From Candidatus Poribacteria bacterium (GTDB lineage: Bacteria; Poribacteria; WGA-4E; JAJDTR01): DNA of 64,000 nt. The stretch is from positions 2,944,001 to 3,008,000 of the forward strand of contig CBDCTK010000002.1 in assembly GCA_965222225.1 (NCBI GenBank), given 5' to 3'. Positions 4,035 through 56,533 of the stretch are shown one piece after another. A program made the translations under genes and the position numbers. The notes beneath the pieces were generated by a model. That model was not told the DNA's origin, did not search any database, and worked only from the letters and a program-made list of their open reading frames with translations. The stretch's first letter is position 1. Every line of letters begins with the position of its first letter.

Positions 4035-4071
4035 GGGATCTCTATCGCGCTCCCTATTCGGTCACTTGATC
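4035..4071. repeat. Covarying ~37-nt hairpin element inserted in a REP palindrome
   Basis: GGGATCTCTATCGC-gc-TC-cc-TATTC-gg-TC-ac-TTGATC splits ggctggtgg|gcagtgcgcaccctaca; compare the intact REP at 9898-9923. Confidence 0.85.
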
Positions 4072-4118
4072 GCAGTGCGCACCCTACAAATATACTCGAA
4101 TATTGCAGAGGAAATCAT

Positions 4119-4598
4119 ATGATTTCCGAATCTGAAGGGGTGGAGTCGCTGCGCGGGCGGCATTGGCAATTCACTGACATCGGACTTACGCCCAATCAGA
4201 CGCATCAACTCGCGGGGGTTTCCGGGGCGTGCCTCGAAATTGAGGCGGTCATTGACCCGGGCAGCGCGAGGGAGTGTCGGCTAGGGGTGCTATGCGGGGA
4301 CAATGACAGGGAGCAGACACCCATCGTTTATGACGCAGAGAGGAGGTCAATCTCACTGAAGGGAGTGAATGATGCTTTGGATTTGGCGGCGGGCGAATTT
4401 CTGAGGTTGCGGGTGTTTATCGACCGGTCGTTGGTGGAGGTGTTCGCGAATCGGCGCGTATGTCTGAGTGCGTGGTCGTATCCGCGTCAGGAGGAAGGAG
4501 GATTTGTGAGGTTGTCGGCTGTCGGGGGGCGTGCGCTGGTGAAGTCGATTGATGTTTGGGAGATGGGAGGAAAGCAGTGGTCTGTGGTCAGTGACTAG
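4119..4598 (+). pseudogene. Isolated GH32 C-terminal beta-sandwich domain (probable gene relic)
   Basis: LRLRVFIDRSLVEVFAN motif. No catalytic propeller is present upstream, and the longer ORF from 3828 only translates repeats. Confidence 0.65.
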
Positions 4599-4769
4599 TG
4601 GTGAAAGTGGGAAGGATGGAAGGGGAGGAAGACGGGAAGAATGTAAAACAGTGGGCAGTGGCTAGTGGTGAGAGCGGAAGGGAGGAAGAGGGAGATGCGG
4701 TGCTGGGTTTCACCGGGAGCCGTATCAATCAACCTACGGGCTGAGAATGAAAGTCGGAGGACATGACTA

Positions 4770-6014
4770 ATGAGAGAAACGGATTTTGTGTTGGACGGAA
4801 CCCTACGCTCGGATGGAGCATCAATTCGCGACGTAGGGTCGAATCATTTCAGATTGACGCTGGGGCGTGTACCCCAACCCACGATGGCTACGGCGCAGAT
4901 TCCGCCGCATCTCGGAAAGCATTATCCGGGGCGGCAGGAGGGTTGGGCAAACTGGGTGCGATTCGAGATTGCCCGCAACCCCAAGGGGAACGCACTTCGG
5001 CTTGATGTGGAATTCGACGCGCCCGAAGAGTGGGGCACATTTCGCTCGCAAAAGGAGGGCGGCGTGCCGTATCCGTTCACAAACTACGATCCGTGCTGGT
5101 CTTACGACGGGGAGGAGTGGAGGTATATCTCGTGGGAGGAGGATTTTGTTCCGGGACGCGCGGGGACGCTCATCTTTCCACCGTTCGAGCAGGATCGGGT
5201 GCTGGTTTGCACGCAGTTACCGATGACCGTTGAGGATGCGGAGGCGATGCTTGCGGAGTGGCAAGAACACCCGCATGTGGAGGTGCATATTCTCGGGGAG
5301 TCGATCGGGGGGCGGAAACTTCATCGCGTGACCATCACCGATCCGCAGGGAAACGTGCCGCCTTCACGCCGCTGGGTGCATCATGCCGCCAATCAGCATC
5401 CGGGCGAAGGGGTGTCGCAGTGGTACATCGCGGGAATGGTAAAGTGGTTCTTGAGCGATGAGGCGGCGGAGGCACGCTCTTGGACGATTGGGCATTTCAC
5501 GCTCATGATGAATCCCGACGGCGTCGACCATGGGTGGTGCCGCGTCAACGCGCAGGGGATTGATAGTAACCGGAATTTTCGGGTGGAGGGGTCTGATCAG
5601 GCGCTCCAGCCACATGAGGCGTTCATCTTCCAGCGAGATTTTGAGTCGCTCCTACACTCCGATGCTCCGGTGACGACGAGTTGGGCGATGCATTCGTCGC
5701 CATCGGCAAAACTGTCACCGATGTTGGTTGGTCGGGGACCGGAGTTGCGGGGCGTGTTGGGGCCTGACGAGGATTTCGGGGCGTTGTTGAAGGAGCGTGA
5801 TCCGAACAACTTGATTAACGACTATCGTGAGCATCATAGGGGAGTGACGCCGGAGTGCTTTTGGGACGGGGGACCGCATCATGCGTGGGGTATCACAACG
5901 TTTCTGGTTGAGGGAGGCGGAAAGGGTCTTAACAAAGCGCAGGCTATCGAGGCTGGGGGTATTCTTATGCGGGCGCTTACGGCGTATTATGCTGGGGATC
6001 AACTGAGCGGATAG
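4770..6014 (+). CDS. M14-family zinc carboxypeptidase-like protein
   Basis: QHPGE (HxxE), MNPDG, DSNRNF and a downstream His (AMHS). Confidence 0.8.
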   Translation: MRETDFVLDGTLRSDGASIRDVGSNHFRLTLGRVPQPTMATAQIPPHLGKHYPGRQEGWANWVRFEIARNPKGNALRLDVEFDAPEEWGTFRSQKEGGVPYPFTNYDPCWSYDGEEWRYISWEEDFVPGRAGTLIFPPFEQDRVLVCTQLPMTVEDAEAMLAEWQEHPHVEVHILGESIGGRKLHRVTITDPQGNVPPSRRWVHHAANQHPGEGVSQWYIAGMVKWFLSDEAAEARSWTIGHFTLMMNPDGVDHGWCRVNAQGIDSNRNFRVEGSDQALQPHEAFIFQRDFESLLHSDAPVTTSWAMHSSPSAKLSPMLVGRGPELRGVLGPDEDFGALLKERDPNNLINDYREHHRGVTPECFWDGGPHHAWGITTFLVEGGGKGLNKAQAIEAGGILMRALTAYYAGDQLSG

Positions 6015-6030
6015 CGAAGACGATAGAGAT

Positions 6031-6116
6031 GGTGGGCGGTGCCCACCCTACAGAGGTCGCGACCTGGAGAGGGATTTCTATCGCACTCCTTATTCAGTCG
6101 CTTGATCGCTCCTACA
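6031..6116. repeat. Two REP-like palindromes, the second split by a hairpin element (6071-6107)
   Basis: ggtgggcggtgcccaccctaca, then gtcgcgacctggaga[element]gctcctaca. Confidence 0.8.
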
Positions 6117-6181
6117 TAGGAAGAAAGGGTATCGGGGATTCGGTGACTGCCGATCCCGCCCTGCACAGAGGAGGTTTGGGA

Positions 6182-7522
6182 ATGAACACTGTATTTCAGA
6201 TTATACCGTGTCAGGTTCAATTCGGCGTTATAATGTTGGCGGCTCTGGTCGCGTATCTGCTGTTGGTTTCGGCGGGGTGTGTCGATGACATAGATAATCT
6301 GGCGGGACCGAAGCCTTTGGTCGTTACAGCGATTGACGGCGCGGCGTTGCAGAAGGCGATGGATCGGCATACGGGCAGGACGGTGCGTATCAGTGAGCCG
6401 ACGACGATAACCTGCTCCGTGTTGGAATCTGTCGTCGGCGATGAAATCTCGCGGCATGCGCTGCTGATTCCTCCGGGTATCGAGCTTGACCTGAACGGCA
6501 GCACGCTGACCCTCGATCTCCGTTCCAACTCGCACGGCGTCAGGCTCTCCAGCAATTCCGCCATTCGCAACGGGACAATCCGGGTCGTGCACAGCGAGGG
6601 CAAAGGGTCGCAGGCGATTTGGCATTCGGGCATCAGCGTGGGCGCTCCGTACGACGATGGCGGCACGCCCGCGAAGCCGAGTTATTTCTCCAAAGTGTCC
6701 AACTGGCGGATCGAGGATATCACCATCGATCAGCAGGTGGAGGCGTCCGCTATTCAACTGATGTCCGAGGCGTGTTTCGGCGTGATCCGACGCGTTCGGA
6801 TTCTTGATTCTTCGAAGGCGTTGATCGGCATTGGATTGGACTGGGGGAGCGTCGGGAAGGTGACCACGGCGGATGACCAGATTCCCCGTATGCGCGAGCT
6901 GTGGGAACGGGGTGAAATCTATAGCACGCACCCGCATGACATTCTGATTGAGGATATCCGTGTCGGGCATCTCACGCGGAATGTTGACGGCAACGACGCC
7001 GGAGTCCGCTGCTCGGCGTGTTACAATATCCAGATCCGAAACCTGCAGGTGGCGTCGGCGGCGACCGCGGTGGCGATTTTCGGCGGGGACTGCGGTTTTG
7101 AGTTTGCGCCAATATCACTTCGTCCGTTGGCTCACGCGGGATACGAGATTGATAGCGTGGTGATTGATACGGCGTTCCGTTACGGGATTGTGTTGAACGG
7201 GTTGGCGGACAATGTTTATCGGTCAAGCGAGAATTACGGTTATGAAACGCTGATTGATACGGCGCATCCCGGATTGAATCGCGTGGTGGTGAGTGACTGC
7301 CGGCTGAACGGCGGGGGCACGCCGAACAATCAGGGCATCTTTATCACGGCGGTTACGGAGGCGGAGGTGCGGAATGTAGTGGTGGAGGGGTTCGGGATGG
7401 GAGCGAGAATCAAGAATTGGGTGAACGGATTGCGTTTTGTGAATTGCGATTTGGCTCGGAATAATGAGCCGTATACGGTTCTTAGCACCGTCGAAGCGCC
7501 GAGGAATTTGGTGTTTGAATAA
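6182..7522 (+). CDS. Probable lipoprotein with right-handed beta-helix (pectin-lyase-like) fold
   Basis: GAGGAGG RBS, LVSAGC lipobox-like motif, repeated I-x-I-E-D-I / I-R-N beta-helix strands. Confidence 0.6.
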   Translation: MNTVFQIIPCQVQFGVIMLAALVAYLLLVSAGCVDDIDNLAGPKPLVVTAIDGAALQKAMDRHTGRTVRISEPTTITCSVLESVVGDEISRHALLIPPGIELDLNGSTLTLDLRSNSHGVRLSSNSAIRNGTIRVVHSEGKGSQAIWHSGISVGAPYDDGGTPAKPSYFSKVSNWRIEDITIDQQVEASAIQLMSEACFGVIRRVRILDSSKALIGIGLDWGSVGKVTTADDQIPRMRELWERGEIYSTHPHDILIEDIRVGHLTRNVDGNDAGVRCSACYNIQIRNLQVASAATAVAIFGGDCGFEFAPISLRPLAHAGYEIDSVVIDTAFRYGIVLNGLADNVYRSSENYGYETLIDTAHPGLNRVVVSDCRLNGGGTPNNQGIFITAVTEAEVRNVVVEGFGMGARIKNWVNGLRFVNCDLARNNEPYTVLSTVEAPRNLVFE

Positions 7523-7676
7523 TGGTGGCGAAGCCATTTTTAGTGATTTGAGATACTACACACCTTTCGCATCGCTCGTGCTTTCAAAGGCTGATCGGGA
7601 GTGCCCACCCTACAGGGTCGCGATCGGGAGATTGTTCCTACAGACAATCAAAGCGGACGGAAAAAAGCTATCGCAC

Positions 7677-7713
7677 GGGATCTCTATCGCACTCCTTGTT
7701 CAGTCGCCTGATC
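7677..7713. repeat. Covarying hairpin element
   Basis: GGGATCTCTATCGC-ac-TC-ct-TGTTC-ag-TC-gc-CTGATC. Confidence 0.85.
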
Positions 7714-7756
7714 GCTACTACAATCGAAACCCGAGTCCGCGTGCACGACGCTGTTG

Positions 7757-9652
7757 ATGAAATCCAACACTTCCGCTCAACTTAGGCTTAAAGTTGCCCT
7801 CCTCGTCGCGCTGTTAATTCCGCTAAACGCCGCGTTTCAGATGCAGCCGGGCTTGGCGCACATGTCGATGATCTCGCTGCTCTACAACGCGGTCACAATT
7901 CTGTTCGTTCTGGTGGCGTTCAGCCGTCTCATTGAGAAATTCCTTCCGAAACTTGCGCTTTCCCGCGCCGAGTTGCTCTCGCTTTATGTGTCGGTCTCCC
8001 TATCGACGTCAATTGGCGGGCACATGTGCGTGCAGATTCTGATCTCCGTCATCAGCTACGCCTTCGCGTTCGCGACGCCGGAGAACGACTGGCAGGCGCT
8101 GTTCTGGAACTACATTCCCGAGTGGCTGTCGGTCAGAGACAAGGGAGCGCTGGATAACCTGTATCGCGGGGACTCCACGCTGTACCTCGCGCCGCACATC
8201 AGGGCGTGGTCGCCGCCGATGTTCGTGTGGGGTTGTTTTCTGTTTGCGCTGTTTTCGGTGATGTTGGCTATCAACTTCATCCTGCGGAAACAGTGGACGG
8301 AAAACGAGAGGCTGAGCTATCCGCTTATTCAGTTGCCGCTGGAGATGACAAGCCGGAGGCGCAGCTTTTTCGGGAGCAAGGCGATGTGGATCGGCTTTGG
8401 CGTCGCCGCGTTTATTGATCTGCTCAACGGGTTCAACCATCTCTTTCCGCAGATACCGCGCATCGGTCTCACGCGCTCTAGGGAAAACGACCTCGCCGAC
8501 CTGTTTACCATCCATCCTTGGGATGCCATTGGCTGGTTGCCGGTGGGCATTTATCCGTTCGCTGTCGGCTTGGCGTTTTTCATTCCGCTGGATCTGTCGT
8601 TCTCGGTCTGGGTGTTTTACCTGTATTGGAAACTTCAGCGGGTCTTGGGGAGCGCTTTTGCTTTGCCGCACGGGTTTCCGTATGCCTCGGAGCAGTCGTT
8701 CGGCGCTTACGCCGGTATCGGGGTGATGGGGCTCTGGGCGGCAAGGAGGCATCTGGTTCAGGTCGCCAGAAAATGCTTGGGGGTGAGTTCGCGCGTCGAC
8801 GATGCCGATGAACCGCTGTCGTATCGCGGGACGGCAATCTGGCTGCTGGCGAGTTTGGCGTTCCTGTTCGCGTTCTGTCATCGGGCAGGGATGTCTTTCT
8901 GGGTAATCGCCCTATTCTTCGGGCTGTATTATATGTTGGCTATCGGGATTACGCGGGTGCGGGCGGAGCTCGGCTCGCCGGTGCATGATCAGCATTTTGC
9001 CGGGGCGGATGAGATGACGTATGCTTTTGCCGGCGCCAAGCCGCTCGGCACGAGCAATATGACGATGCTTTCTTACTTCTACTTCTTTAATCGGGCATAC
9101 GACTGCCTGCTGATGCCGCATCAGCTCGAAGGGCTGAAGATTGCCGAGCGGGCGGATATTCAGTATCGGCGGTTCGGGGGCGTCATGGTCTTTGCAACGG
9201 TGCTGGGTATCGCCACGTCGATCTGGGGGTATCTGCATTTTGCCTATCAGGGTGAGATTAACACCGGTTGGGCGGGCGAAGAGGCGTTCCAGCGGCTTGA
9301 GGGTTGGCTGGCGCATCCGTCGGGGACAAATGGATCGGTTATCACAGCGATCGGCGTCGGATTTTTGGTGTCGGTCGCGCTGACGCTGATGCGGGGGCAA
9401 TTTCTTTGGATGCCGTTGCACGCGGCTGGCTATGCCGTCACCACGACGTGGACGATGAATTTTTTCTGGTTCTCTATCTTCGTCAGCTTTGTGTTGAAAT
9501 GGCTGATTGTCAAGCACCGCGGGCTGCGGGGTTTTCGCAGGGCGGCGCCGTTTTTTCTGGGGTTGGTGCTTGGCGAGTTTGTGGTTACGACGTTTTGGGG
9601 GGTGTTCGGGATAGTCACGGGGCAGTCGACGTATATTACGATTGATATGTAG
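7757..9652 (+). CDS. Polytopic membrane protein, DUF6785/DUF6784-like (putative transporter)
   Basis: About 14 hydrophobic segments; LRKQWTENERLSYPL, RVRAELG and GLVLGE motifs. Confidence 0.7.
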   Translation: MKSNTSAQLRLKVALLVALLIPLNAAFQMQPGLAHMSMISLLYNAVTILFVLVAFSRLIEKFLPKLALSRAELLSLYVSVSLSTSIGGHMCVQILISVISYAFAFATPENDWQALFWNYIPEWLSVRDKGALDNLYRGDSTLYLAPHIRAWSPPMFVWGCFLFALFSVMLAINFILRKQWTENERLSYPLIQLPLEMTSRRRSFFGSKAMWIGFGVAAFIDLLNGFNHLFPQIPRIGLTRSRENDLADLFTIHPWDAIGWLPVGIYPFAVGLAFFIPLDLSFSVWVFYLYWKLQRVLGSAFALPHGFPYASEQSFGAYAGIGVMGLWAARRHLVQVARKCLGVSSRVDDADEPLSYRGTAIWLLASLAFLFAFCHRAGMSFWVIALFFGLYYMLAIGITRVRAELGSPVHDQHFAGADEMTYAFAGAKPLGTSNMTMLSYFYFFNRAYDCLLMPHQLEGLKIAERADIQYRRFGGVMVFATVLGIATSIWGYLHFAYQGEINTGWAGEEAFQRLEGWLAHPSGTNGSVITAIGVGFLVSVALTLMRGQFLWMPLHAAGYAVTTTWTMNFFWFSIFVSFVLKWLIVKHRGLRGFRRAAPFFLGLVLGEFVVTTFWGVFGIVTGQSTYITIDM

Positions 9653-9711: not shown

Positions 9712-9839
9712 GGGATCTCTATCGGGATTTACTATCGCCTTCGCTATCCACTCAGTTGATCGGATTAAGGGATTTCTATGGAATCTCTATCGCAGTCATT
9801 ATCCATTCCTTTGATCGCTCATTATCCATTCGCTTGATT
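9712..9839. repeat. Cluster of nested covarying hairpin elements
   Basis: Copies at 9724-9761, 9780-9816 (inner) and 9769-9838 (outer), plus a 5' stub. Confidence 0.85.
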
Positions 9840-9901
9840 GGCACCGTCTTTTATCCCGCTTAAATGTACAAAGTCGAGCTAAGGCGTTATTACAAAAGGC
9901 T

Positions 9902-9923: not shown

Positions 9924-10049
9924 GAAAACTACAGGAGATTGATTTCACTTGACATCGCGCCCTTTGTTCGCTTATCGTGTTTAGTTAAATTCACCTTATT
10001 TTGCAGTGATTCTGGGAAACGACACTATTCGTTTTAGAGGTACATTGTT

Positions 10050-17415: not shown

Positions 17416-17533
17416 GGCAATCAATGTGTAGGAACGCTCAGGGAACCCACGGCTGACGTTCTTTCATTGGCACACGACCGTATTTGTCGGACACAGAACG
17501 GGAATTTATGAGCCACAAAGCTTTTTGTTGCCA

Positions 17534-17762
17534 AGTTCGACTTTGTACATTTAAGCGGGATAACGGACGGTGTCAATTAAGCGTTGAAGAAAAGCGGGGG
17601 AGATTTTAACTAGCTGGTCTTTTTGGTTGAACATTGAAAAAGTCGTCAGCGGTTTCTGATATTGTGCAACTTGTCAGGATCTCTATCGCCCTCACTGTGG
17701 GATCTTCTATCGCCTTCGTTATCCACTCAGTTGATCGTTCGGTTGATCCCGCGCTGGGGCTT
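17534..17762 (+). repeat. ~190-bp intergenic block with promoter-like motif and nested hairpin elements; homologous to 36156-36342
   Basis: Colinear similarity with 36156-36342. Its left end also occurs inverted at 9838-9880. Confidence 0.8.
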
Positions 17763-18910
17763 ACAATGGATTAGTTGTGCATAAATGCGGGACAACACCC
17801 GTCTCTTAACTCGCCACTCGCCACTCGCCACTAATTACTGTTTTTCCCACTGAACTATGCCTGCTAAACGCAAAAAGAATACAAAGACCAAGACCGTCGA
17901 AACACTCACACATCCTGACGATAAACGGGCCAACATCCCGACCGCTGAACTCCAGCCGGTGATGGAGGACGATGACCCCGTACCGGTCACCTACGAGCGC
18001 AACCGCGACCTCGATCCCCAATTCGTGTGGCGGGGCAAGGATGAACAGGACTGGTCGAATCTGGTGGTGCAGGCGCCACCGCTTTTCATCCAAGAAAAGG
18101 TGCATCCGAAGGTGCTGATTGACGACCTGATGCGCGACGCGCAGTCCGACCGGGAGGCGCCTAAGGAGCAACTCGACCTGTTCGCGGATTTCAACGGCTT
18201 GCCGAGCGAAGACGCCAAGACGGAGTTCTACCAGCACGACGCCAACTGGTCGAACCGGATGATTCTCGGCGACAGCTTGCGGGTGATGGCATCGCTGGCG
18301 GAGCGCGAAGGGCTGCGCGGAAAGGTGCAGTGCATCTACATCGATCCGCCCTACGGCATCAAGTTCAACTCCAACTTCCAGTGGTCCACCACCAGCCGCG
18401 ACGTTAAGGACGGCAAGGCTGATCACATCACACACGAGCCAGAGCAGGTGAAGGCGTTTCGGGACACCTGGCGCGACGGAATTCACTCCTACCTGACCTA
18501 TCTGCGAGACCGGCTGACTGTGGCGCGTGACTTGCTGACGGAGAGCGGTTCAATCTTTGTGCAGATCGGGGATGAGAATGTGCATCGGGTGAGAGGATTG
18601 ATGGATGAAGTATTTGGGGAAGAGAATTTCTTTGCACAGATCGCTTTTAGAAAGTCTTCTCCTCTTGGTTCTAAGGGGTTGATGGGGATTTATGATGTAT
18701 TGCTGTGGTATTCAAGGGAGCGAAGTGTATCTAAATATCGCCAATTGTTGGTTGATAAGTTATATGGCACAGACGCGCCATTTACTATGGGAGACTTGAA
18801 GTCCTCTGGGTATACCCCTTCGTGTACGTATGACTTTGAATTCAGGGGACAGACCATAAAACTGCAAAGAAAGAGTTGGCGAACGACTGCCGAAGGCATG
18901 AAAAATTTAA

Positions 18911-20159
18911 CGGAATTAGTAGCTTGTAGCTTTTAGACTGACGACAAACATAAAACTTGGTACCCTGTCGTAAATCTTTTCGTCACACGTAGATGTCCAT
19001 AGTGACTATTCTTCTCGTAGGAGTTTGCTATGGACATTTTGAATCTTATGAAAGAGTTTCCAAATCAAGAATCTTGTCTCAGATTTATAGAGGAAAAACG
19101 TTGGAAGGACGGTGTTTGCTGTATCCACTGTGGCAGTGAAAAAGTTGGACGCAAGAACAAAAACGACATTACTACTGGTTGGAATTGCTACGATTGTGAA
19201 TCTAGCTTTTCGGCTACAGCAGGAACCATCTTCCATGGTACCAAGATACCTCTCCAGAAATGGTTTTTGGCTATCTCAATTCTTTCCAATGCCAAGAAAA
19301 GCATATCGAGTTGTCAGCTTGCTCGTGACTTGGACATGAATCAAAAGTCCGCTTGGTATATGGCAATGCGCCTCCGTGAGAAAATGAGTGATAGTGATGA
19401 ATTGCTGAAAGGGATAGTTGAAGCGGACGAAACCTATGTCGGCGGCAAACCCAGAGCAAAATCTAAGAGAGGTAGAGGCACAAATAAATCTCCCGTCATC
19501 GGCGTAGTCGAGAGAGGCGGTCGGGTGGTTGCTAAATTCATGAAGGTTCTATCTGGTGAAAATATCAGAGAATTCATCCTTAGCAATGTCTCACCCGATG
19601 AGTCTATTCTTATGACTGATGAATTTCGCTCTTACAATAGTCTGGACGAAGATATCGAAAGACATGTTATCCATCACCAAGAGAGATATGTTTCTGAGGA
19701 CGGCGTAACTCACACCAACACCATCGAGTCGTTTTGGGCTTGTGTCAAGAGGTCATTCTACGGAACGCATCATCACTACAGCAAGAAGTGGCTGCCACTG
19801 TATATCATGGAGTCTTGCTGGAAATATAATCGCAGAAAAGATGATGAGATTTTCATAAGATTTTTTGATGAATGCTTCACCTGAGCCACATGAATTGTTT
19901 GGCTATCGGTATATTCTGTCAACGACAACATCATGGTGTGCTGAAAATCCCATAGTGTTGGAAATTAAAATCCCGCAGATAACCCGCAATGCTCCCGCGA
20001 GCATGTACAAACGCTTGGTCAACATGATATGCCTCCATTTCTCTCTTATAGAGATGTATTTTAGTGTGAATCAAGATTCCGAACACTGTCTAAAATGATT
20101 GTACATTAAGAAGAGAAAAGCAAGCAAATCGACCAAAAAGCAGTTAACTACTAAGTCCC
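18911..20159 (+). mobile_element. IS1595-family insertion sequence (1249 bp)
   Basis: 8-bp target duplication AAATTTAA at 18903-18910 and 20160-20167; imperfect terminal IRs CGGAATTAGTAGCT / GGGACTTAGTAGTT (reverse complement). Confidence 0.92.
19030..19884 (+). CDS. IS1595-family transposase
   Basis: Zn ribbon CxxC...CxxC, VEADETYVGG, MTDE and HTNTIESFW. Confidence 0.93.
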   Translation: MDILNLMKEFPNQESCLRFIEEKRWKDGVCCIHCGSEKVGRKNKNDITTGWNCYDCESSFSATAGTIFHGTKIPLQKWFLAISILSNAKKSISSCQLARDLDMNQKSAWYMAMRLREKMSDSDELLKGIVEADETYVGGKPRAKSKRGRGTNKSPVIGVVERGGRVVAKFMKVLSGENIREFILSNVSPDESILMTDEFRSYNSLDEDIERHVIHHQERYVSEDGVTHTNTIESFWACVKRSFYGTHHHYSKKWLPLYIMESCWKYNRRKDDEIFIRFFDECFT

Positions 20160-21517
20160 AAATTTAATTCTCGCAGATCGCCTCATTGACACCAAAGGAG
20201 AAATTCCAAGATACAAACAGATTGCCGCAGATTTCCCGATGCAAGAAATTAACAATTTGTGGGATGATACCTCCGGTGCCACGAATATGAAGTACGTTGT
20301 TGAAACCTCCAATAAAGTCATCCAGCGCTGCATCCTCATGACGACCGACCCGGGCGATCTCGTACTCGACCCCACCTGCGGCTCAGGCACCACCGCTTAC
20401 GTCGCCGAGGGTTGGGGCAGGCGCTGGATCACGATTGACACCTCTCGCGTAGCGCTTGCCTTAGCGCGTTCCCGCATCATGGGGGCGCGTTACGACTACT
20501 ACCTTCTCTCCGACAGCCGTGAGGGACAACTCAAAGAGGCGGAGATTGAAGGCAAAGCGCCCTCGGAAACCCCAACCTACGACGATATCCGTCAGGCGTT
20601 CGTGTACGAGCGAGTGCCGCACATCACGCTCAAGTCCATCGCCAACAACGCCGAGATTGATGTTATCTGGGAGCGGTATGAGGAGGAGCTGGCGCCGCTC
20701 CGCGCCGAGTTGTCGGAGGTTAGCGGTCAAGCGAAAACGCTTGAAGAGTGGGAGATTCCGCGCGAACGCCCCGATGATTGGAACCCCACCGCCGAGCCGC
20801 TGCTCGCCGCTTTCTGGGAACTGCGTCTCGCCCGCCAGAAAGAGATTGACGCCTCCATCGCCGCCAAAGCCGAGGTCGAATACCTTTACGACAAACCCTA
20901 CGAAGACAAAAAGAAGGTGCGCGTGGCGGGTCCCTTCACCGTGGAGAGCCTGTCGCCGCACCGCGTGCTGGGGGTTGACGAGGACGACGAACTGATTGAT
21001 AACCTCGCTGAAGATAAGCTCGGCTACGGCGAAGCTCAAGACTTCGCCACCGTAATCTTGGAGCACCTCAAGACCTCCGGCGTTCAGCAGGCGCATAAGG
21101 AGGACCGCATCTCTTTTACCAGTATCAAACCTTGGCCCGGCGCCCTCGTCTGTGCCGAGGGCAGATACGTCGAGCGAGACCCCGACTCCGGCGACGAAAA
21201 ACGCGCCGGTATCTTCATTGGCCCCGAATTTGGCACCGTCTCCCGTCCCGACCTCGTTGAGGCTGCCCGCGAGGCGGCGGACGCCGACTTTGACCTCCTG
21301 ATAGCTTGTGCTTTCTCCTACGAAGCGCACTCCACTGATCTCCACAAACTCGGTAAAATCCCGATACTCAAAGCGAGGATGAACGCCGATCTCCACATGG
21401 CTGCCGATCTCAGCAATACCGGTAAGGGGAATCTGTTTGTGATTTTCGGAGAGCCGGATATTACAGTGGCCAGTGGCCCGTGGCTAGTGACCAGTAAAGG
21501 AGAAAAATTTGCAAATT

Positions 21518-21790
21518 ATGAACAAGTTAAAAAGTTATCAAGACTTGGAAGTTTGGAAGAAATCAATCGAGTTGGCAGAGATGGTCTATCGAATCTCTGC
21601 GGAGTTTCCGCCGGAGGATCAAACGAGCGAATAGCGAGTGCGATAGAGATCTCTAACGGAGACATTTCTGATTCTGGCGCAGCGGTTGGGGATCGCCAAA
21701 GCCGAACAAATCAATCCCTTACTAGCCCTGGCGGGGGACATTGGACGGATGCTCAACGGTCTCAAACGCTCGCTGCGATCCAGAACTTGA
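21518..21790 (+). pseudogene. Four-helix-bundle (23S rRNA IVS protein/Avd-like) gene nested in the +1 frame of mod, core replaced by a hairpin element
   Basis: MNKLKSYQDLEVWKKSIELAEMVYRISAEFPPE...TETFLILAQRLG...IGRMLNGLKRSL*; flanked by inverted heptamer runs (21464-21495 and 21807-21831). Confidence 0.8.
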
Positions 21791-22187
21791 CCGACGCGGA
21801 CTTCCCGCTGGCACTGACCACTGGCGACTGGACACAAGTAACGGTGCACGGTGTTGATGTTTTTCATCCCAACACGGGGGAGATTCGGAGCGACAGCACG
21901 GACGGCATCGCCTGCTGGTTCATTGATACCGATTACAACGCGGAGAGTGTTTTTGTGCGTCACGCCTATTTCCTCGGCGCGAATGACCCGTACAAATCCC
22001 TCAAGACGACGCTGAAAGCGGAGATTAACCACGAGGCGTGGGAGACGCTCCACAGCGACACCTCGCGGCCGTTTGAGAAGCCGGCATCCGGGCGGATTGC
22101 CGTTAAGGTTATTAATCACCTTGGGGATGAGGTGATGAAGGTTTTTCGGGTGTAGGGACGCACCGAAACAGAGAATTTTCTTCAAAA

Positions 22188-22224
22188 GGGATCTCTATCG
22201 CCCTCGCTGTTCGCTCGGTTGATC
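22188..22224. repeat. Covarying hairpin element
   Basis: GGGATCTCTATCGC-cc-TC-gc-TGTTC-gc-TC-gg-TTGATC. Confidence 0.85.
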
Positions 22225-25876: not shown

Positions 25877-26043
25877 GATCAACTGCGATCAACCGAACGA
25901 TCAACTGAGTTGATAACGAAGGCGATAATAAATCCTACCTCTGTAGGAGGGGCATCTTGCCCCGACTAATCTTTAGCTGTGCGATTGGCATCTTTGACAG
26001 CGAAGGCGATAGAAGCTCCCTATAGTGTTCCCATAGAAATCCC
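25877..26043. repeat. Cluster of nested and partial hairpin elements (opposite orientation)
   Basis: Three stacked GATCAA starts (25877, 25887, 25899) and several GATAG/ATAG...TCCC stubs. Confidence 0.75.
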
Positions 26044-26693: not shown

Positions 26694-28292
26694 ATGACTG
26701 AAGAGAAGCGACCGAATATTCTGCTGATCCTGAACGATGACATGGGTTATTCCGACCTCGGCTGCTACGGCGGGGAGGTGCAGACGCCGAACCTTAACAG
26801 GCTTGCCAACCGCGGACTGCGATTCACGCAGTTCTACAACACGGCGCGTTGCTGCCCTTCGCGCGCATCGCTGTTGACGGGGCTGCACCCGCACCAAACA
26901 GGCGTTGGACACATGACGGCCGATGACGGACTGGAGGGTTATCGCGGGGATTTGAATCATCGTTGCGTGACGATTGCCGAGGCGCTTGGCGCGACGGGTT
27001 ACCGAACCTATATGAGCGGGAAGTGGCACATTTCGCGTCACATACAACCCGAGGGACCCAAACACAGTTGGCCGCGCCAGCGGGGTTTCGACCGATATTT
27101 CGGCATCCTCTCGGGCGCCGCGAATTACTGGAAGCCGCATTCACTCACCCGTGGGGACGATTGGGTTCCGCCCGACGAGCTCCCGGACGAATTCTTCTTG
27201 ACCGACGCGATCAGCGATGAAGCATCGGGATTCATTCGAGACCATCACGCAAAATCACCCGATGACCCCTTCTTTAGCTACGTCGCCTACACGTCGCCGC
27301 ATTGGCCGTTGCACGCGCACGAGGAGGATATCGCGCGTTATGAGGGTCGATTCTCCGCCGGTTGGGATGCGCTGCGTGAGGAACGCCTGCTGCGTATGCG
27401 GGAGATGGGCATCTTGGAGGATTGCTGGGAATTGAGTGATCGAGATGCGTCGCAACCTCCGTGGTCGGATGCGGGGCATAAGGAGTGGAATCTGCGGCGT
27501 ATGGAGGTTTACGCAGCGCAGATTGACCGCATGGATCAGGGGATTGGGCGGATCATCAGCACGTTGGAAGCCACCGGACAACTGGAAAACACGCTGATTC
27601 TCTTCTTGGTGGACAACGGCGGGTGCGCTGCAGAATTGGGCGGGCCCAACACGCGTATCAGGCGAGATTGGCCCGTCTCACCGCCGCTGACACGCGATGG
27701 GAGACCGGTCAGCACGGGGAACGACCCGACAATTATGCCGGGACCGGAAACGACATATCAAAGCTACGGCGTGCCGTGGGCGAACTTGTCAAATACGCCG
27801 TTCCGCGAATACAAGCACTGGGTGCATGAGGGCGGCATCAGCACGCCGTTTATCGCGCATTGGCCCGAGCACATCACAGGCGCGGGCGAGTTTCGGCATC
27901 AGCCGGGACAGTTGACGGATGTGATGGCAACGTGTCTCGAGGTCGCCGGCGCGGCGTATCCGGGGGAGAACGATGGGAATCCGGTTTATCCGCTAGAGGG
28001 CACGAGTTTGACCCCCATTTTTGATAACCGGGACAACGGGGTGGGCGTGTTGTATTGGGAGCACGAGGGGAATAGAGCGGTGCGGCGAGAGAATTGGAAG
28101 CTGGTCACAAAGTATCCGGGGGATTGGGAGTTGTATGACATGGAGGCGGACCGCACGGAGTTGGAGGATTTGAGCGGGAAGTGCTCGGACATCGTGAAGG
28201 AGTTGAGCGGGTTGCACGCTGATTGGACGGATCGGTGTCAGGTTCAGCCGTGGAGGGATATTTTGGAGTCGCGGGATCAAGCGACTGGATAA
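26694..28292 (+). CDS. Arylsulfatase (AtsA-like)
   Basis: DDMGYSD, CCPSR, GKWH, PHWPLH and HEGGISTP. The stop codon lies inside a hairpin element (28275-28325). Confidence 0.92.
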   Translation: MTEEKRPNILLILNDDMGYSDLGCYGGEVQTPNLNRLANRGLRFTQFYNTARCCPSRASLLTGLHPHQTGVGHMTADDGLEGYRGDLNHRCVTIAEALGATGYRTYMSGKWHISRHIQPEGPKHSWPRQRGFDRYFGILSGAANYWKPHSLTRGDDWVPPDELPDEFFLTDAISDEASGFIRDHHAKSPDDPFFSYVAYTSPHWPLHAHEEDIARYEGRFSAGWDALREERLLRMREMGILEDCWELSDRDASQPPWSDAGHKEWNLRRMEVYAAQIDRMDQGIGRIISTLEATGQLENTLILFLVDNGGCAAELGGPNTRIRRDWPVSPPLTRDGRPVSTGNDPTIMPGPETTYQSYGVPWANLSNTPFREYKHWVHEGGISTPFIAHWPEHITGAGEFRHQPGQLTDVMATCLEVAGAAYPGENDGNPVYPLEGTSLTPIFDNRDNGVGVLYWEHEGNRAVRRENWKLVTKYPGDWELYDMEADRTELEDLSGKCSDIVKELSGLHADWTDRCQVQPWRDILESRDQATG

Positions 28293-28415
28293 GGAGCGCG
28301 ATAGCCAATCCCGATAGAGATTCCCTTGCTCCGACTGACTTATGTGCAATGGAGTGACCGGAAAATGATTCGATAGAGATTCACTAGTCACTAACCACTG
28401 CTTTTTGAGGTTGCC

Positions 28416-36155: not shown

Positions 36156-36342
36156 GACTTCGTACATTTAAGTAATATAACAGACGATTTCAATCTAACG
36201 TTGAGGAAAAGCGGCGGAGATTTTAATTATCTGGTTTTCTTGGTTGACTATTGAAAAACTTGCGAACAGTTCCTGATACTATGCAACCTGTAAGATTTCT
36301 ATCGCCTTCACTACTCGTTCGGTTGATCCCGCTCTGGGGCTT
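36156..36342 (+). repeat. Second copy of the ~190-bp promoter + hairpin block
   Basis: Colinear with 17539-17762; hairpin element at 36292-36328. Confidence 0.8.
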
Positions 36343-44409: not shown

Positions 44410-44446
44410 GATTAACCGACCGAATAGGAAGGGCGATAGAGTTCCC
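44410..44446. repeat. Hairpin element inserted in a REP
   Basis: gtaggagc[GATTAA-cc-GA-cc-GAATA-gg-AA-gg-GCGATAGAGTTCCC]ctccgaatcacgac. Confidence 0.8.
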
Positions 44447-45404: not shown

Positions 45405-45606
45405 GGGATCTCTATCGATCAAATGAGCGAATAGCGAATGCGATAGAGATCCCAAGGCGATAGCAAATCCGGCTCCTTATTCAGTCGTCTGATGGTCTGG
45501 ATTTGTCAATCCAGCAGTATCAAGCAATTAGGGAGTTTCAGGGAATAGCGATTGTGCGAGATTTTCTATGGGAACGCTATCGCGCTCATTATCCATTCGC
45601 TTGATC
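45405..45606. repeat. Cluster of hairpin elements including an opposite-orientation nested copy
   Basis: Outer 45405-45493, inner 45417-45453, further copy 45558-45606. Confidence 0.8.
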
Positions 45607-48290: not shown

Positions 48291-48404
48291 GATCAAGCGA
48301 CCGAACAGGGAGCGCGATAGCAATCCCATAGAGATTCTCCCAACCCGACCCGCGAGGAGATCTCTATCGGAGTTCTATCGCAGTCATTATTCATTCCTTT
48401 GATC
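48291..48404. repeat. Two hairpin elements in opposite orientations
   Basis: GATCAA-gc-GA-cc-GAACA-gg-GA-gc-GCGATAG and CTATCGC-ag-TC-at-TATTC-at-TC-ct-TTGATC. Confidence 0.85.
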
Positions 48405-50359: not shown

Positions 50360-50450
50360 TTGTTGTGGGAGGGGATTTCGCTTCCCGTCAATACGTCGCG
50401 ATTCGGAGATCGCTCCTACCGTGCTCGTTATTCACTCGGTTGATGCCAAC

Positions 50451-51362: not shown

Positions 51363-52005
51363 GCTATCTCCCGAGTTGCCATTTTGTCGTTATAGAATAT
51401 CCATAGGGTGACCGATCCGCCGCCGTTCACGAGCCAATTTTGTTGAGGAATGCGTCACGGGCTGCCTGCGTCACTATAGCGCGGATTCGGTAATTGAATC
51501 AAGGGAAAAGTTTGAGTGAGTTGGGAACGCAGATCTGCGTTACGTTCAATCATGGGATGGCACAGGTGTCGTCCCTTGCAATTTCGTGTGAGTAGGGGGG
51601 CGTGTCACGATTGCCAGTAGGAGGAAGTTCCGAATCCCTTTAATCAGTTTGGGGTCAAATGGTTCTACTTTTCTAGGCTAATGTAACATACGATTTTTAG
51701 ATTGGAAGCTTAACATATGTGCGGTATATTTTAAGTAGAAATCAGGTGGTTGTGTCAGACAAATTGACGCTACCGAGATTTCGATAGGAGAAATAGGTTT
51801 CAAGATTGCCTGAAATCTATTTGTTTGGATTTACGCCGTTGAACGCTTGAAGCCCTGTAGTTCGGAGATTCATCGCCGAGAACGCGTCCCGAGACGCCAT
51901 AAGAATCGGGCAACTACAGGCTAAAATGCGTAAGTCCCATTATTACTACAACTTACTTTGTATAGGGACATACCGCCCTTGCAAAACAGATAAAGGAGAT
52001 TTATC

Positions 52006-52461
52006 ATGCCAGATAATCCTGTAGAGAAACGAGTAAACCAAACCACCGATGATTGGACAGCCGAGGCGTTCACCAGATACGAAGGTCACGAGGTGTCTGG
52101 TCCCATGACGTACAGCAAAACGAAGCACGACTGGGAAATTACCAACACCAGCGGTGAAGATTTGGAAATTGATTGGGAATGCCAGCATGAAGTCACACGG
52201 GAAAATGACGCCAATTTCAATGAGCGAATGACACGCCATGATGAATTTGTTGAATTCCCGGCTGGTGCCACACTACGATATCAATGGCCGCATTTAGTAA
52301 ATAGTAACGACTGGTTCACATTGACAGGTAGATTTTTTGTTCGGCATTACACCGAAGTCAGGGTCTTCAAGCAAGCCGCTGGTGCGCCTAGACAGAACCG
52401 TGGCAGTATAAAGGCGGGTGAACTGGTACACGATTTCACAATTGACGGCGATGACGATTAG
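52006..52461 (+). CDS. Hypothetical acidic beta-rich protein
   Basis: AAGGAG RBS and a clean 151-aa ORF. Confidence 0.55.
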   Translation: MPDNPVEKRVNQTTDDWTAEAFTRYEGHEVSGPMTYSKTKHDWEITNTSGEDLEIDWECQHEVTRENDANFNERMTRHDEFVEFPAGATLRYQWPHLVNSNDWFTLTGRFFVRHYTEVRVFKQAAGAPRQNRGSIKAGELVHDFTIDGDDD

Positions 52462-52563
52462 AGCGCTCTTGTTCCGTACTTTACGCCAGGGATTTATATA
52501 GAATAGTGGTGCCATTGCCCGTATTTTGAACGCTTGTCCAAAATTTGAGCACGTTAGACTGCC

Positions 52564-52728
52564 TTATAGTCTTACAGCAGGTCTTTGCATCGCCATTTTT
52601 GTAAATTCCTTGGTGAACTGTCGATAATCACGACACTTTTCTTCGAATGCATGATTCGAGCGTTCTTCGGCGCGCGCAATACGTTTGAGTTTAGCTCGTT
52701 CTTTGGAACGGCGTTTTCCGATTCCCAT
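52564..52728 (-). CDS. Small basic 54-aa protein
   Basis: AAGGAGGTGA RBS, then MGIGKRRSKERAKLKRIARAEERSNHAFEEKCRDYRQFTKEFTKMAMQRPAVRL*. Confidence 0.55.
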   Translation of the reverse strand: MGIGKRRSKERAKLKRIARAEERSNHAFEEKCRDYRQFTKEFTKMAMQRPAVRL

Positions 52729-52967
52729 TGTATATCACCTCCTTCCTTTGGGAGATTCAGGTTATGATGGGATGCAACAGGTGGGCCGGTACCCACCTGT
52801 TGCACTTTATCCCTCCATTTTCCCTATTATACCATCCCCGATATCCTTCCGAAATCTTTTTGGGTCACCGTTGGCATGAAATTTGTCACGTTATGATTTG
52901 GCGAAACCTTGACAAAAGATTGACTTCTTTGTTGGCATGCCTTATATCATATGTGTAGAAGGAGGAA

Positions 52968-53877
52968 ATGGAGGGCACATGCCATAACAAGCACGTTGCA
53001 TTAGTCGATTTAATTCGCCGGTTTCCCGATGATGAGGCAGCTAAAAAGCGGTTGGTGAGGTGTCGTTGGCCCATGACATTCGTTGTGCATATTGTGACAG
53101 CCAGAATGTGAATGGGAAGGCGAAGCACGCCTACTATGCCTTATCGTTGTCGCTATTGCGGTAAACATCTCTCGGTCAAGACCAATTCGATCGTGCACTC
53201 GTCCAACATAGACTATCGCTAGCTATCTGCTGTGCAGTCGTCCAAAAGGCGTATCTAGCATGAATCTGCACCGGTATCTGGGGATTACACAGAAATCGGC
53301 GCGGTACATGCTACATCGTATACGAAAGGGAGGGAAACGACACACCAGGAATTCTGTGGCGAATTGGAAGCGTGCGAGACTTTTGTCGACGGCAAAGAGA
53401 CAAACAAGCACGCCAACAAAAAGTTGTGCGCTGGACGTGGTACCGTCGTCAATATTCCAGTTGCTGGCATGAAAGAGCGAGGGACGAAACGGATTCAAGC
53501 TGAAGGTAGTAGGCGCAACAGACTGCAGCACGTTCTAGGGATTTGTCTTGAAGAATATCACGAAATATACCACTATCTATACTGATGAGGCGAGAGCCTA
53601 TATTGGCTTGCCACATAAGCATGAGACCGTCAGGTATTCTATCGGCAACTATGTGAAGGAGGAAGCCAACACGAACGGAATGAAATCGTTCTGGGGGATA
53701 TTCAAACGGGGATACGTCGGCGTCTACCACAAGATGAGCTCTAAACATCTGCACCGATACATTACCGAGTTTCAAGAACGCTACTTCTACCGAGCGCTAC
53801 ATACCGAACAACGGATGGAGGAGCTGGTTAGAAGAAGCGCAAAGAAGCAACTCAAATATGCCAATCTAATTGCTTAA
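52968..53877 (+). pseudogene. Degraded IS1595-family transposase
   Basis: Fragments in several frames: RRFPDDEAA...RCAYC, LGITQKSARYMLHRIR, EACETFVDG, IYTDE, NTNGMKSFW and KHLHRYITEF. Confidence 0.85.
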
Positions 53878-54078
53878 GCCTGAAATACTTGAGGGCAAAC
53901 TCTTTGACACGCCGTTGCCTGTAGGGAAAAGCCCCTCACTTCAAACGAATGTACCATTCGGATATAGTTAATGGCGCAATAGAAATCGTGATTGGATTTA
54001 TCCTAGTCGTAGTAAGGTTAATCATCTTAGGTTGGCTCTATGACGAATTACCATCTTAGCTATAGAAGGAGGCAAGAC

Positions 54079-54588
54079 ATGAAGGGCGTATTCCTTATAC
54101 TAGCTGTGTTCCTGCTTGCTAGTTGTGGCCAGGAGCATGACGCCGATCTTGATGACGGTACGCCACGTGTGCGACTAGTAAAGGGTAACGAGGTGTTGTT
54201 TCATATTCTTTGGGACCGCCCGCTCCAAGTAGAACAGGTTATTGAAGTTCAGTTTAATGAGCGCATTCAAGACTCTGGAACCCTAGAATGGAAGTCAACA
54301 GCAACTCGCTATTTGTTCTACTTCCCAGCGGGCGCGGTTATATCCGAACCGGTTCGTTTGGACTTGAACAGATGGCATACCTACCGAGTAAAGATACTAC
54401 CAGCGCATATCCGAAATGCGTACACACTACCGGCGCCGGCATGGATGGCGACCGAGACAAGTGCGAGGGTGGGTGGCGGGATAGGCTTGCGAGAGCAAAA
54501 CGATATTATTCCCGAAGGTTATGACTTCAAGCCCTACAAACTAGGATTCCCGTCATCGCTCTCCTTCTACCCACCGACACGGCATTGA
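54079..54588 (+). CDS. Hypothetical lipoprotein
   Basis: AAGGAGG RBS and MKGVFLILAVFLLASC lipobox. Confidence 0.7.
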   Translation: MKGVFLILAVFLLASCGQEHDADLDDGTPRVRLVKGNEVLFHILWDRPLQVEQVIEVQFNERIQDSGTLEWKSTATRYLFYFPAGAVISEPVRLDLNRWHTYRVKILPAHIRNAYTLPAPAWMATETSARVGGGIGLREQNDIIPEGYDFKPYKLGFPSSLSFYPPTRH

Positions 54589-54798
54589 CATGTATTGAAG
54601 TGCCAACGCTAATTTAGACCACAAATCAGCAAAGTTAATACAAGTTTTGCTGTTCAAATCCCCGTGGTGTCACGGCACGACTTAAACGCGGCAGCAATCT
54701 TGTTGTAATGACTGTAACGAAAAACCCAGGAATTTCAATAGGCGGCAACTTGGCTTAATTAGGAAAGATGTCTATTGTTTTGCCATCAAGATTGACTA

Positions 54799-55920
54799 TC
54801 ATTCTTTCGCGAGAGGCCCCTGTTTCACGCGTCCCCACGTGGTAGCGGCTTTGCCGTAGGGTTGCACGGTCAGAATTGTAGCGCGGTAGATGCCTTGGGG
54901 GGTGTGGACGGTGCCTGCCTGCCTTTCGTGGAGCGCATAGGTTGCTGCGTACAGCTCGGATTGATGAGTTACGAGCGCACTAACTGTAAGCCACTGCAGA
55001 CCTGCGGGAATCCATGTGTCCGAGCGTGCATCAAACATGTAGACGCCGTGATCGTAAAGTCCGGCAAACAGACGGCCGCGGTTTACAGCCAGGCTTGTTA
55101 AACTGGGAGCGTAGTCTAGATACCCATCGGAATCGCTTGGAAGCCCTACGATGCGATACTCCCAAGGGAAAGGGAGTCCTTCTTCGTTCCATCGTGCAAA
55201 GCCTTTGCCTCCGGCGACGTATAATCGATCATTGAACACCGCCCAGTCGTGCGCCGGGTGGTGTCCGAAACGGGGAATAGATTCCCACGTGTGGCCGTTG
55301 TCAGGGGAACGGAACATGCTGCCATCCGATTCGCTCCAGAGATAACCATCGAACTCAGTCATCGACAAGATACTACGGGCTATTGGCCAGTCGGGCGCTC
55401 CCCACGCGTCTTGGCGCACTATCCAGTCGTCTATTACGCCGTGCCATGTCTCACCTCGGTCGGTCAATGTATACGTACCCAAGCACGTCACAGTGATGAC
55501 TGTGCCAGAACTGGTGACGAGGATTTGCTCAACGCGTCCGTATTGGTCGAGTTCTTCGTATAGGGGCAATCCGTCGTTTATGGGCTTCCATGTCTCGCCG
55601 AGATTGTCGGAGCGAACTACGCCGTTGCCATGTGTTCCTGCATACACGGTATTTTGATGGATTGCAATTGCAGTACACGTGTGTTTAACTTCGCTTGAAC
55701 CCCAGGTGTAACCGTCATCGAGGGAGATGTATACGCCATTCCATGTCCCGGCGTAGAGTCGGCGTCCATCGGTTTCAAGTGCGTTCACGCGCCCCATGGG
55801 CTGCACGACAGTCAGTTGAGTCCACTCGGCGCGGATATTCGCATCCGATTCGTTCGCCAGCATAGTCGTTGTTACTAAGAAAATGAAAGCGGTTCGCATT
55901 AAACGTCGAGTCCATATCAT
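54799..55920 (-). CDS. Secreted BNR/Asp-box beta-propeller protein with K-x-ATTWG C-terminus
   Basis: SLDDGYTW, SDNLGETW, TDRGETW and SPDNGHTW; ends VQPYGKAATTWGRVK. Confidence 0.75.
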   Translation of the reverse strand: MIWTRRLMRTAFIFLVTTTMLANESDANIRAEWTQLTVVQPMGRVNALETDGRRLYAGTWNGVYISLDDGYTWGSSEVKHTCTAIAIHQNTVYAGTHGNGVVRSDNLGETWKPINDGLPLYEELDQYGRVEQILVTSSGTVITVTCLGTYTLTDRGETWHGVIDDWIVRQDAWGAPDWPIARSILSMTEFDGYLWSESDGSMFRSPDNGHTWESIPRFGHHPAHDWAVFNDRLYVAGGKGFARWNEEGLPFPWEYRIVGLPSDSDGYLDYAPSLTSLAVNRGRLFAGLYDHGVYMFDARSDTWIPAGLQWLTVSALVTHQSELYAATYALHERQAGTVHTPQGIYRATILTVQPYGKAATTWGRVKQGPLAKE

Positions 55921-56272
55921 TGGATTTCCTCCCTAAGAACTGATGGCTATCGGATTGACTGCGTTAGTAGAGTGTGCGCAAGTTATGTACCACTCCCATA
56001 AGCTGCCCCGACTTGGCACTACCCCGCGAATTTCATCAAACTCGTCTGCCGATGTGTCATGGAGACGCAATGGCGTTTCGTGCTTTCGTATCCAACAAGT
56101 GAACGCCAATGTTCATTTTTTGTGCAAGAGGGGCGTTGGCTGTTCTCGCTACAGTGCTTGTGTCTTACAAATCTGGTAGAGCATCAGTGTTGTCCCACCC
56201 TCCTGTTGGTAATACCATTTCTTAAAATGATAGGGCATCAATGATGTGAATTTCGGAGAAAAGCTATCGCAC

Positions 56273-56533
56273 GGGATTTGCTATCAAGACTTCCTATCGC
56301 CTTCACTATTCGTTCAGTTGATCGGTTGGAAAGGGATCTCTATGGGAGTTCTATCGCGCTCCTTATCCAGTCGCTTGATCGCAGTGCGCACCCTACAGGA
56401 TTGTCCAGAGAAGAAACCGAGTTTTGAAGAAAAAACTCGGTTTCGTCGCGAGCTGGAGAGGGATCTACTATCGGGATTAGCTATCGCCTTCGCTAGCCAC
56501 TCAGTTGATCCCTCGTTGTCCACTCGGTTGATC
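56273..56533. repeat. Largest cluster of hairpin elements (at least 4 copies) interleaved with REP halves
   Basis: Copies end at TTGATC near 56323, 56380, 56510 and 56533. The palindrome aagaaaccgagttttgaagaaaaaactcggtttc is shared with 3984-4018. Confidence 0.85.

Follow-up and report, generated by a model that had tools for sequence, protein, structure and literature searches.

A dispersed 37-nt repeat of Candidatus Poribacteria with invariant mismatches and covarying, hypervariable stems

According to Quentin et al. 2018 (PMC6006769), repetitive extragenic palindromic (REP) elements have a G+C-rich basal stem of 7–20 full pairs, and class 3/subclass 2.6 TnpA-Y1 systems pair IS200-like Y-x3-Q genes with non-GTAG structures that reach ~600 copies in one Acidobacterium. 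For REPINs, compensatory stem changes are reported (PMC3116915), and Di Nocera et al. 2013 (PMC3733652) describe CGTC-tagged REPs as abundant palindromic repeats without a dedicated transposase. The literature collection that we searched yielded nothing on REPs, or on REP-associated tyrosine transposases (RAYTs), in Poribacteria. Here we describe a 37-nt hairpin repeat that is dispersed through a Candidatus Poribacteria genome (GenBank GCA_965222225.1) and was noticed in a stretch of 64,000 nt on contig CBDCTK010000002.1 (positions 2,944,001 to 3,008,000, forward strand; "the window" throughout). Although it behaves as a REP would, three hallmarks of that family are missing from it, namely the tag, the stem and a cognate REPtron.

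A preliminary description, made from the letters of the window, had proposed a repeat in both orientations whose four hypervariable dinucleotides (A to D) co-vary as base pairs. Searching both strands with its pattern at up to 3 mismatches gave 21 matches, compared with 0 of 100 shuffled controls yielding any, and all the full-copy positions it had listed were recovered; with a 7-nt head from the flanks added to the pattern, the unit is 37 nt long. A pairs with D and B with C, giving two stems of 2 bp around invariant GA/GA mismatches. In the window, 35 of 42 such pairings are perfect, close to the 39 of 46 counted earlier, and A and B take 6 values apiece. Five of the seven exceptions, as in the earlier count, are G·T wobbles on the strand reading GATCAA...GCGATAG (hereafter the GA strand, its complement being the T-rich strand), the other two being a G·T on the opposite strand and a mismatch.

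The whole assembly, which belongs to a sponge symbiont and comprises 5.70 Mb in two contigs with a G+C content of 0.50, contains 1073 copies with 650 distinct 30-mers and 264 combinations of A, B, C and D. When the copies are aligned, fixed positions carry ~1.8 bits of information and the eight variable positions ~0.4 bits. Both stems are fully paired in 884 of the 1073 copies. The outer stem is fully paired in 947 copies and the inner stem in 983, compared with means of 303 and 412 (maxima 347 and 456) in 1000 shuffles that permuted the 3' halves among copies. Among the 4292 pairing cells, 3584 are Watson–Crick and 150 fall in other classes, while 474 are A·C on the T-rich strand, that is G·T on the GA strand, versus only 84 that are G·T on the T-rich strand. 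Subfamilies do exist among the copies. However, a few clonal subfamilies, which the preliminary description had named as a possible cause, do not explain the covariation, because the 8 × 6 table of common stem types (from 21 outer and 15 inner paired types) is nearly all filled and the mutual information between stems is low (0.44 bit vs 1.6–1.7 bit within a stem).

An alignment of 87 copies, 21 from the window and 66 from other metagenome-assembled genomes (MAGs), showed the same behavior: 98.0% of cells are paired vs 79.1% in shuffles, a level that 0 of 500 shuffles reach; double-change cells number 136 vs 28.3 in shuffles; and slid controls pair in 16–48% of cells. From this alignment RNAalifold returned the same fold unprompted. 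Outermost is an invariant helix of 3 bp in which ATC faces GAT; inward from it come an AA/GC 2 × 2 internal loop, a variable 2-bp stem, the invariant GA/GA tandem mismatch, the second variable 2-bp stem and a GRATA loop. Wobble asymmetry, covariation and consensus fold together indicate that the structure is selected on one strand, which is the GA strand as originally proposed.

Copies lie mostly outside genes, here called as crude open reading frames (ORFs): 941 of 1070 chromosomal copies are outside such ORFs, which make up 81% of the DNA. Spacing is irregular and 499 of 729 clusters are single copies, with neighbors within 300 nt arranged head-to-head in 57 cases and tail-to-tail in 21. The commonest variant is present as 45 identical 30-mers, which we count in support of recent bursts. 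Across one genome per species, a scan found at least 128 stretches matching the exact pattern, and among the 80 matches listed, one is in a MAG labelled Clostridium and the rest are in MAGs of Candidatus Poribacteria that stem from several projects. The Clostridium-labelled copy (L023:101-127) lies in A+T-rich DNA on an 11-kb contig with both stems perfectly paired, and could reflect chance, a binning error or transfer. Because hundreds of copies occur per MAG in several independently assembled MAGs, the element is not an assembly or adapter artefact, another source that the preliminary description had envisaged.

We further surveyed 151 genomes sampled from the phylum, whose kin are not independent, and found the element in 17. 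All eight other genomes of the window's genus hold 529–1216 copies each at up to 1 mismatch, all four genomes of a genus in another family hold about 185–205 each, and 4 further genomes a few each. The sequence pattern was not found in the two largest genera, g4 (38 genomes) and g6 (57 genomes), nor did a covariance model reveal diverged relatives in 38 genomes of g4 or 56 of g6, with up to 45 candidates per genome scored after strict filters. The element is specific to a few Poribacteria lineages. Viral contigs gave 0 matches to it. As anticipated, no Rfam family matched the window at gathering score; the only Rfam signals, from a 401-base multi-copy stretch, have E values of 0.77–0.98 and lie far under that threshold.

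Orientation of the copies is independent of genes and tied to replication. Of 633 copies in spacers flanked by co-directional genes, 339 have the GA strand in sense orientation and 294 in antisense, and 152 copies lie in divergent spacers and 156 in convergent ones. The element is a poor fit for a transcript element because its orientation ignores gene direction, and it is not an RNA gene. Local GC skew, by comparison, is a strong predictor: the T-rich form lies preferentially on the G-rich strand, with odds ratios of 3.7–4.5 and p values of 1e-25 to 1e-31. The bias persists in 755 de-clustered copies (one per cluster; odds ratio 3.64) and in the 605 copies that are neither nested nor beside a REP tag (3.77), and the gene-strand majority in 40-kb neighborhoods does not account for it. 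Since the main dnaA match, at 2.61 Mb, sits at the minimum of cumulative GC skew, the usual skew polarity seems to hold. Along the chromosome, G000:C2, the skew switches sign many times and shows no two clean arms, a pattern that points to numerous inversions or joins in the assembly. In three GTAG-tagged REP families of this genome, the GTAG strand lies on the C-rich strand (odds ratios 0.12, 0.21 and 0.39), so that this strand and the GA strand of the element share the same skew side. With this shared bias, the element obeys the same strand rules as ordinary REPs.

The element is mobile now or has been so in the past. A filled and an empty form of one site were found among relatives: a hairpin REP downstream of an IS200-like Y1 gene carries the element in G000, G010 and G019, and the same REP is uninterrupted in G031, G115 and G082, as it is in other genera. 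At this site, insertion took place just 5' of the REP stem, with two bases replaced and no target duplication; the junction rule is drawn from this one polymorphic site together with nested copies. The stem of this non-GTAG REP directly follows the tail of 43 copies. Nesting also occurs at fixed places within the element itself. Among the 1073 copies, 76 have an upstream head that ends precisely 8 nt before the unit's own conserved 7-mer and 104 have one that ends 12 nt before it, and a reverse-oriented head stands directly after the tail in 42. In 158 copies the sequence continues at once with a hairpin and tail that lack a head and belong to the outer member of a nested pair. Within 14 nt downstream of the tail, 240 copies have the complement of the GTAG tag and 22 the tag itself. 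The preferred landing sites are shown to be the 5' foot or the loop of DNA hairpins, including REPs, CRISPR repeats and the element's own head.

One CRISPR array (G000:C2:2705762-2707995), built on a different 37-nt repeat, has been invaded by 20 element copies. It also contains a repeated composite in which two inverted copies surround a core of ~125 nt. Element and composite are placed where the hairpin of the CRISPR repeat begins or ends, and a 14-bp hairpin belonging to that repeat flanks the composite on both sides. The element is itself not a CRISPR repeat, as its spacing is irregular and no regular array with unique spacers is formed. Integration by the CRISPR adaptation machinery, an idea suggested by the duplicated 14-bp hairpin, finds no support in the REP insertion, which lacks such a duplication, and excision as a GATC restriction fragment was rejected because the empty REP site contains no GATC. 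Pairing of the two flanks with each other, which insertion at hairpin tips would predict, is not convincing: runs of at least 5 occur in 52 copies vs 29 in the control, and runs of at least 6 in 13 vs 11. Clean empty sites were also sought in a 20-kb stretch of the window against five genomes of the genus, where the intergenic DNA is too diverged and a single orthologous copy is shared.

A non-coding, non-autonomous, REP-like single-strand DNA element moved by a Y1/HUH transposase is, with moderate confidence, our explanation of these data. The replication-linked bias upholds the single-strand DNA interpretation, and the substrate of an HUH/RAYT-type enzyme, as suggested at the outset, still stands as the best candidate. 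The transposase would work on single-strand DNA, in trans, where the replication fork passes. Such an enzyme may read the invariant unpaired or mismatched bases together with the flanks, while the four variable pairs would need only to pair. Compensatory changes would then leave transposition intact and, because copies would keep transposing after them, the stems could drift through G·T intermediates.

The window holds no mobilising gene, as noted before, and a profile search of the genome returned five Y1_Tnp matches. The best is an IS200-like protein of 157 aa (G000:C2:3080255-3080728) whose HUH and Y-x3-Q motifs line up with those of the ISDra2 and IS608 transposases, both of solved structure. 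Against the IS200 model (cut-off 55) it reaches 65.8 bits, and against the REP-transposase model (cut-off 80) 30.6 bits. In the window's genome its gene is flanked by inverted element copies, two C-terminal remnants of it adjoin element copies, and the class or its remnants are present in 9 of 9 genus genomes searched. N- and C-terminal end remnants of the gene lie at G000:C2:3946492-3946536, 3625886-3625930, 4995674-4995814 and 2170508-2170549. A reading of these flanking copies as the mark of a cognate RAYT was rejected, since 29 loci of other genomes show a different, non-GTAG hairpin REP as the constant flank. Two more Y1 classes, present in 82 and 34 of the 151 genomes, are flanked by lineage-variable GT[AG]G-tagged REPs, and a 247-aa Y1-like protein was rejected as mover given its presence in 30 of 151 genomes and only 3 of 8 in the genus. 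Presence of the element (17 genomes) tracks none of these classes (94, 82, 34 and 30). Every Y1 class comes with a REP of its own that differs from the element, and for this reason none of the five matches could be shown to be the cognate enzyme. If one is to be singled out, we lean weakly, and with considerable doubt, toward the IS200-like 157-aa protein as cognate, because its class, or remnants of it, is found in all nine genus genomes, the orientation trend of its REP is alike (odds ratio 2.07, not significant) and a motif order is shared. The latter, TCTAT, CGC at the 5' foot and TTG after the hairpin, appears common to the element and to this REP in a reading of flanks by eye rather than a statistical test.

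More broadly, at least three Y1/HUH gene classes exist side by side in Poribacteria, each flanked by arrays of its own REP (G000 and loci L135-L268). One of these REPs is a non-GTAG hairpin and several are GT[AG]G-tagged; the stems of the tagged ones differ by lineage with compensatory changes.

Several observations weigh against a REP-like element served by a Y1/HUH enzyme. The 37-nt copies beside the IS200-like Y1 gene are insertions into that gene's own, different REP. Homologues of the gene occur in 94 of 151 genomes, including the element-free genera g4 (21 of 38) and g6 (42 of 57), and two g3 genomes with about 190–200 element copies gave no IS200-like Y1 match. The Y1 class associated with GTAG REPs was likewise rejected as mover, as 18 loci carry other REPs with the element nested in them, and 26 loci of the second class, with its two subclasses, had the same outcome. 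No REPtron of the element's own was found. A canonical GT[AG]G tag 0–2 nt 5' of the foot is absent from either strand in the consensus and the 87 aligned rows; on the GA strand, the hairpin is followed on its 3' side by ATAG. Junctions are not clean, with two target bases replaced and several nesting positions. The hairpin, tested on 6 strands as DNA and 6 as RNA, is no more stable than shuffles (best z-score −1.42), so that nearest-neighbor folding does not support the stabilisation by tandem G·A pairs assumed in the preliminary description. Because the fold is marginal in the energy model though pairing is selected, pairing probably acts inside a protein complex. The orientation analysis itself relies on crude ORF gene calls and a patchy GC skew. 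By the usual rule, the C-rich strand on which the structured strand is enriched is the leading-strand template. In the IS608 paradigm the active strand is expected on the lagging-strand template (PMC6006769), so the bias of the element is the opposite of that paradigm if it reflects insertion preference; preferential loss from the lagging-strand template would explain the reversal.

Two rivals come next. A minimal single-hairpin transposon that parasitises other DNA hairpins (REPs, CRISPR repeats and itself), in which the enzyme recognises the tandem sheared G·A motif and the GRATA loop with no REP tag, is an unlikely but serious contender; its enzyme would be a Y1 class of new specificity or an unrecognised enzyme. 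Somewhat less likely still is a hitch-hiker or hyperparasite of REPs, which has no enzyme of its own and spreads inside REP hairpins moved by the RAYT-type enzymes of the genome. It would account for copies that lie within or adjacent to REPs, at least four families of which are involved, and next to all the Y1 classes examined, for the REP-tag complements found within 14 nt after the tail and for a strand bias identical to that of GTAG REPs. Yet the element, at 1064 copies, outnumbers each host REP family (96–229 copies), 605 of 1070 copies are un-nested and away from a REP tag with the same orientation bias, and self-nesting at fixed positions points to recognition of the element itself.

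Three further explanations were weighed. Tandem G·A pairs are common protein-binding motifs in RNA, and G·U-type wobbles on one strand, strong covariation with a consensus fold and a mostly intergenic location would also suit an RNA hairpin that serves transcripts by binding a protein or by stabilising or terminating them and is selected at many loci. We consider this improbable, given the near-even sense and antisense counts, the copies between divergent genes, an orientation that tracks GC skew, the lack of an Rfam match and the marginal predicted stability, as well as the nesting, the insertions in CRISPR repeats and REPs, the 45 identical copies and the insertion polymorphism. Still more improbable is a double-stranded site of a symmetric DNA-binding protein at which no hairpin forms: the quasi-palindromic layout, the invariant blocks and GATC at both ends speak for it, but a dimer predicts conserved symmetric positions where here they are hypervariable and co-varying, and the wobble asymmetry of 474 vs 84 is meaningless in a duplex. 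Least probable of all is a retron-like product of reverse transcription or templated synthesis, the other idea of the preliminary description. Although the element is a small structured single strand and its duplicated heads could stem from template jumps, retrons are single loci and not a thousand dispersed copies. Moreover, nothing like a retron locus was seen in the genome, where the single reverse transcriptase match is weak (27.5 bits, in a 679-aa frame) and has no element copy within 2.5 kb.

The copies and partial units of the window are as follows, with coordinates on the window and the strand on which the T-rich consensus reads; "aligned" denotes pattern search plus alignment.
4035-4071, + strand: full copy, 0 mismatches; consensus on +, structured GA strand on −
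5997-6033, − strand: full copy, 1 mismatch; consensus on −
6071-6107, + strand: full copy, aligned
7677-7713, + strand: full copy, 2 mismatches
9725-9761, + strand: full copy, with an extra partial head before it at 9712-9724
9780-9816, + strand: full copy, from the pattern search
9817-9841, + strand: head-less hairpin-plus-tail unit directly after the tail of the 9780-9816 copy; tandem or nested form
17677-17699, + strand: 5' part of an outer copy, its loop interrupted by the copy at 17700-17736 and its 3' part at 17737-17748
17700-17736, + strand: full copy nested in another copy, followed by half of the non-GTAG REP
21617-21653, − strand: full copy, aligned
22188-22224, + strand: full copy, aligned
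25899-25935, − strand: full copy, 2 mismatches
28275-28311, − strand: full copy, aligned
36292-36328, + strand: full copy, aligned
44410-44446, − strand: full copy, 2 mismatches
45417-45453, − strand: full copy, aligned
45570-45606, + strand: full copy, aligned
48291-48327, − strand: full copy, head-to-head pair with 48368-48404
48368-48404, + strand: full copy, aligned
50409-50445 (also given as 50416), + strand: degenerate copy, 3 mismatches
56287-56323, + strand: full copy with two extra heads before it (56266-56286)
56344-56380, + strand: full copy in a GTAG-tagged REP, the right arm of which follows the tail
56474-56510, + strand: inner copy of a nested pair, in another GTAG-tagged REP
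56511-56533, + strand: outer copy of that pair, here its hairpin and tail, with the head at 56461-56473

Of the starts listed in the preliminary description, those of full copies stand, while 9769, 17677, 45405 and some of those in 56273-56533 mark either incomplete heads or hairpin units that lack a head; the copy at 5997 (−) and the degenerate one at 50416 (+) had been overlooked. The copy at 9725-9761 recurs with the same stems at the matching place in the related genome G019. Copies or halves of GTAG-tagged palindromic REPs lie at 9925-9950 and 56381-56399, one of which encloses the 37-nt element. Directly upstream of an element cluster, a repeat of ~125-150 nt (17533-17680) that has many copies of 80–91% identity in five relatives may be a MITE-like (miniature inverted-repeat transposable element) family; a fragment of its start is found inverted at about 9835-9880. 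In addition, an N6/N4 DNA methylase gene (pieces at 17857-18936 and 20239-22155, which cover profile positions 1-113 and 139-218, respectively) is split by an IS1595-family transposase gene at 19030-19884 (DDE_Tnp_IS1595, 126 bits), whose insertion sequence (IS) is multi-copy in related genomes at 90–98% identity.

About a thousand natural variants map, base by base, which positions of a 37-nt single-strand DNA substrate are fixed and which merely paired. This set is a ready specificity map for whichever HUH-type enzyme handles the element, a kind of enzyme that attracts interest as a sequence-specific tool for single-strand DNA. If the minimal single-hairpin transposon were the true account, the hypervariable stems would amount to a natural library of the bases that the enzyme ignores. 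The data also show that other repeats, and CRISPR arrays as well, are open to colonisation by short repeats, which bears on the decay of REP landscapes and CRISPR loci in uncultured symbionts, and that several Y1/REP systems coexist in Poribacteria.

Compared with REP/REPIN–RAYT systems, the element is alike in being a short imperfect palindrome of hundreds to a thousand copies, mostly intergenic and single, paired or clustered, in a genome with Y1/HUH genes, with a patchy distribution among relatives and the strand bias of GTAG REPs. Compensatory stem changes are common to it and to REPINs (PMC3116915). It differs in its helix, which has 3 + 2 + 2 pairs split by two 2 × 2 internal loops and so falls short of the REP stem given in PMC6006769; in having no Y1 gene flanked by it as its own REP, where REPs have a cognate REPtron; and in the hypervariability of its stem sequence, a contrast to REP families, whose members in any one genome are usually near-uniform. 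The CGTC-tagged REPs (PMC3733652) are likewise abundant palindromic repeats without a dedicated transposase; the element lacks the CGTC tag.

The ends of IS200/IS605 elements and their miniatures are similar in that irregular hairpins are read by the transposase in single-strand DNA, the target is not duplicated, the replication fork is involved (here through the orientation bias) and insertion occurs next to a defined short sequence. IS200/IS605 elements have distinct left and right subterminal hairpins, whereas the element has a single hairpin per unit and no gene. The small dispersed repeats (SDRs) of Nostoc, which would count among the nearest described relatives and are reportedly 21–27 nt long, share a hairpin, are mobile and are mutually nested, recall the element in their nesting and mobile hairpin but differ in phylum and sequence; we know of no report of a conserved tandem G·A in them. 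With the class 3 systems of PMC6006769, the likeness lies in the IS200-like Y1 protein of this genome and its non-GTAG REP, while the CnGA foot of those systems is not seen here as a fixed feature. The atypical hairpin repeats beside class 3 Y1 genes would appear to be the nearest described relatives of the Poribacteria element.

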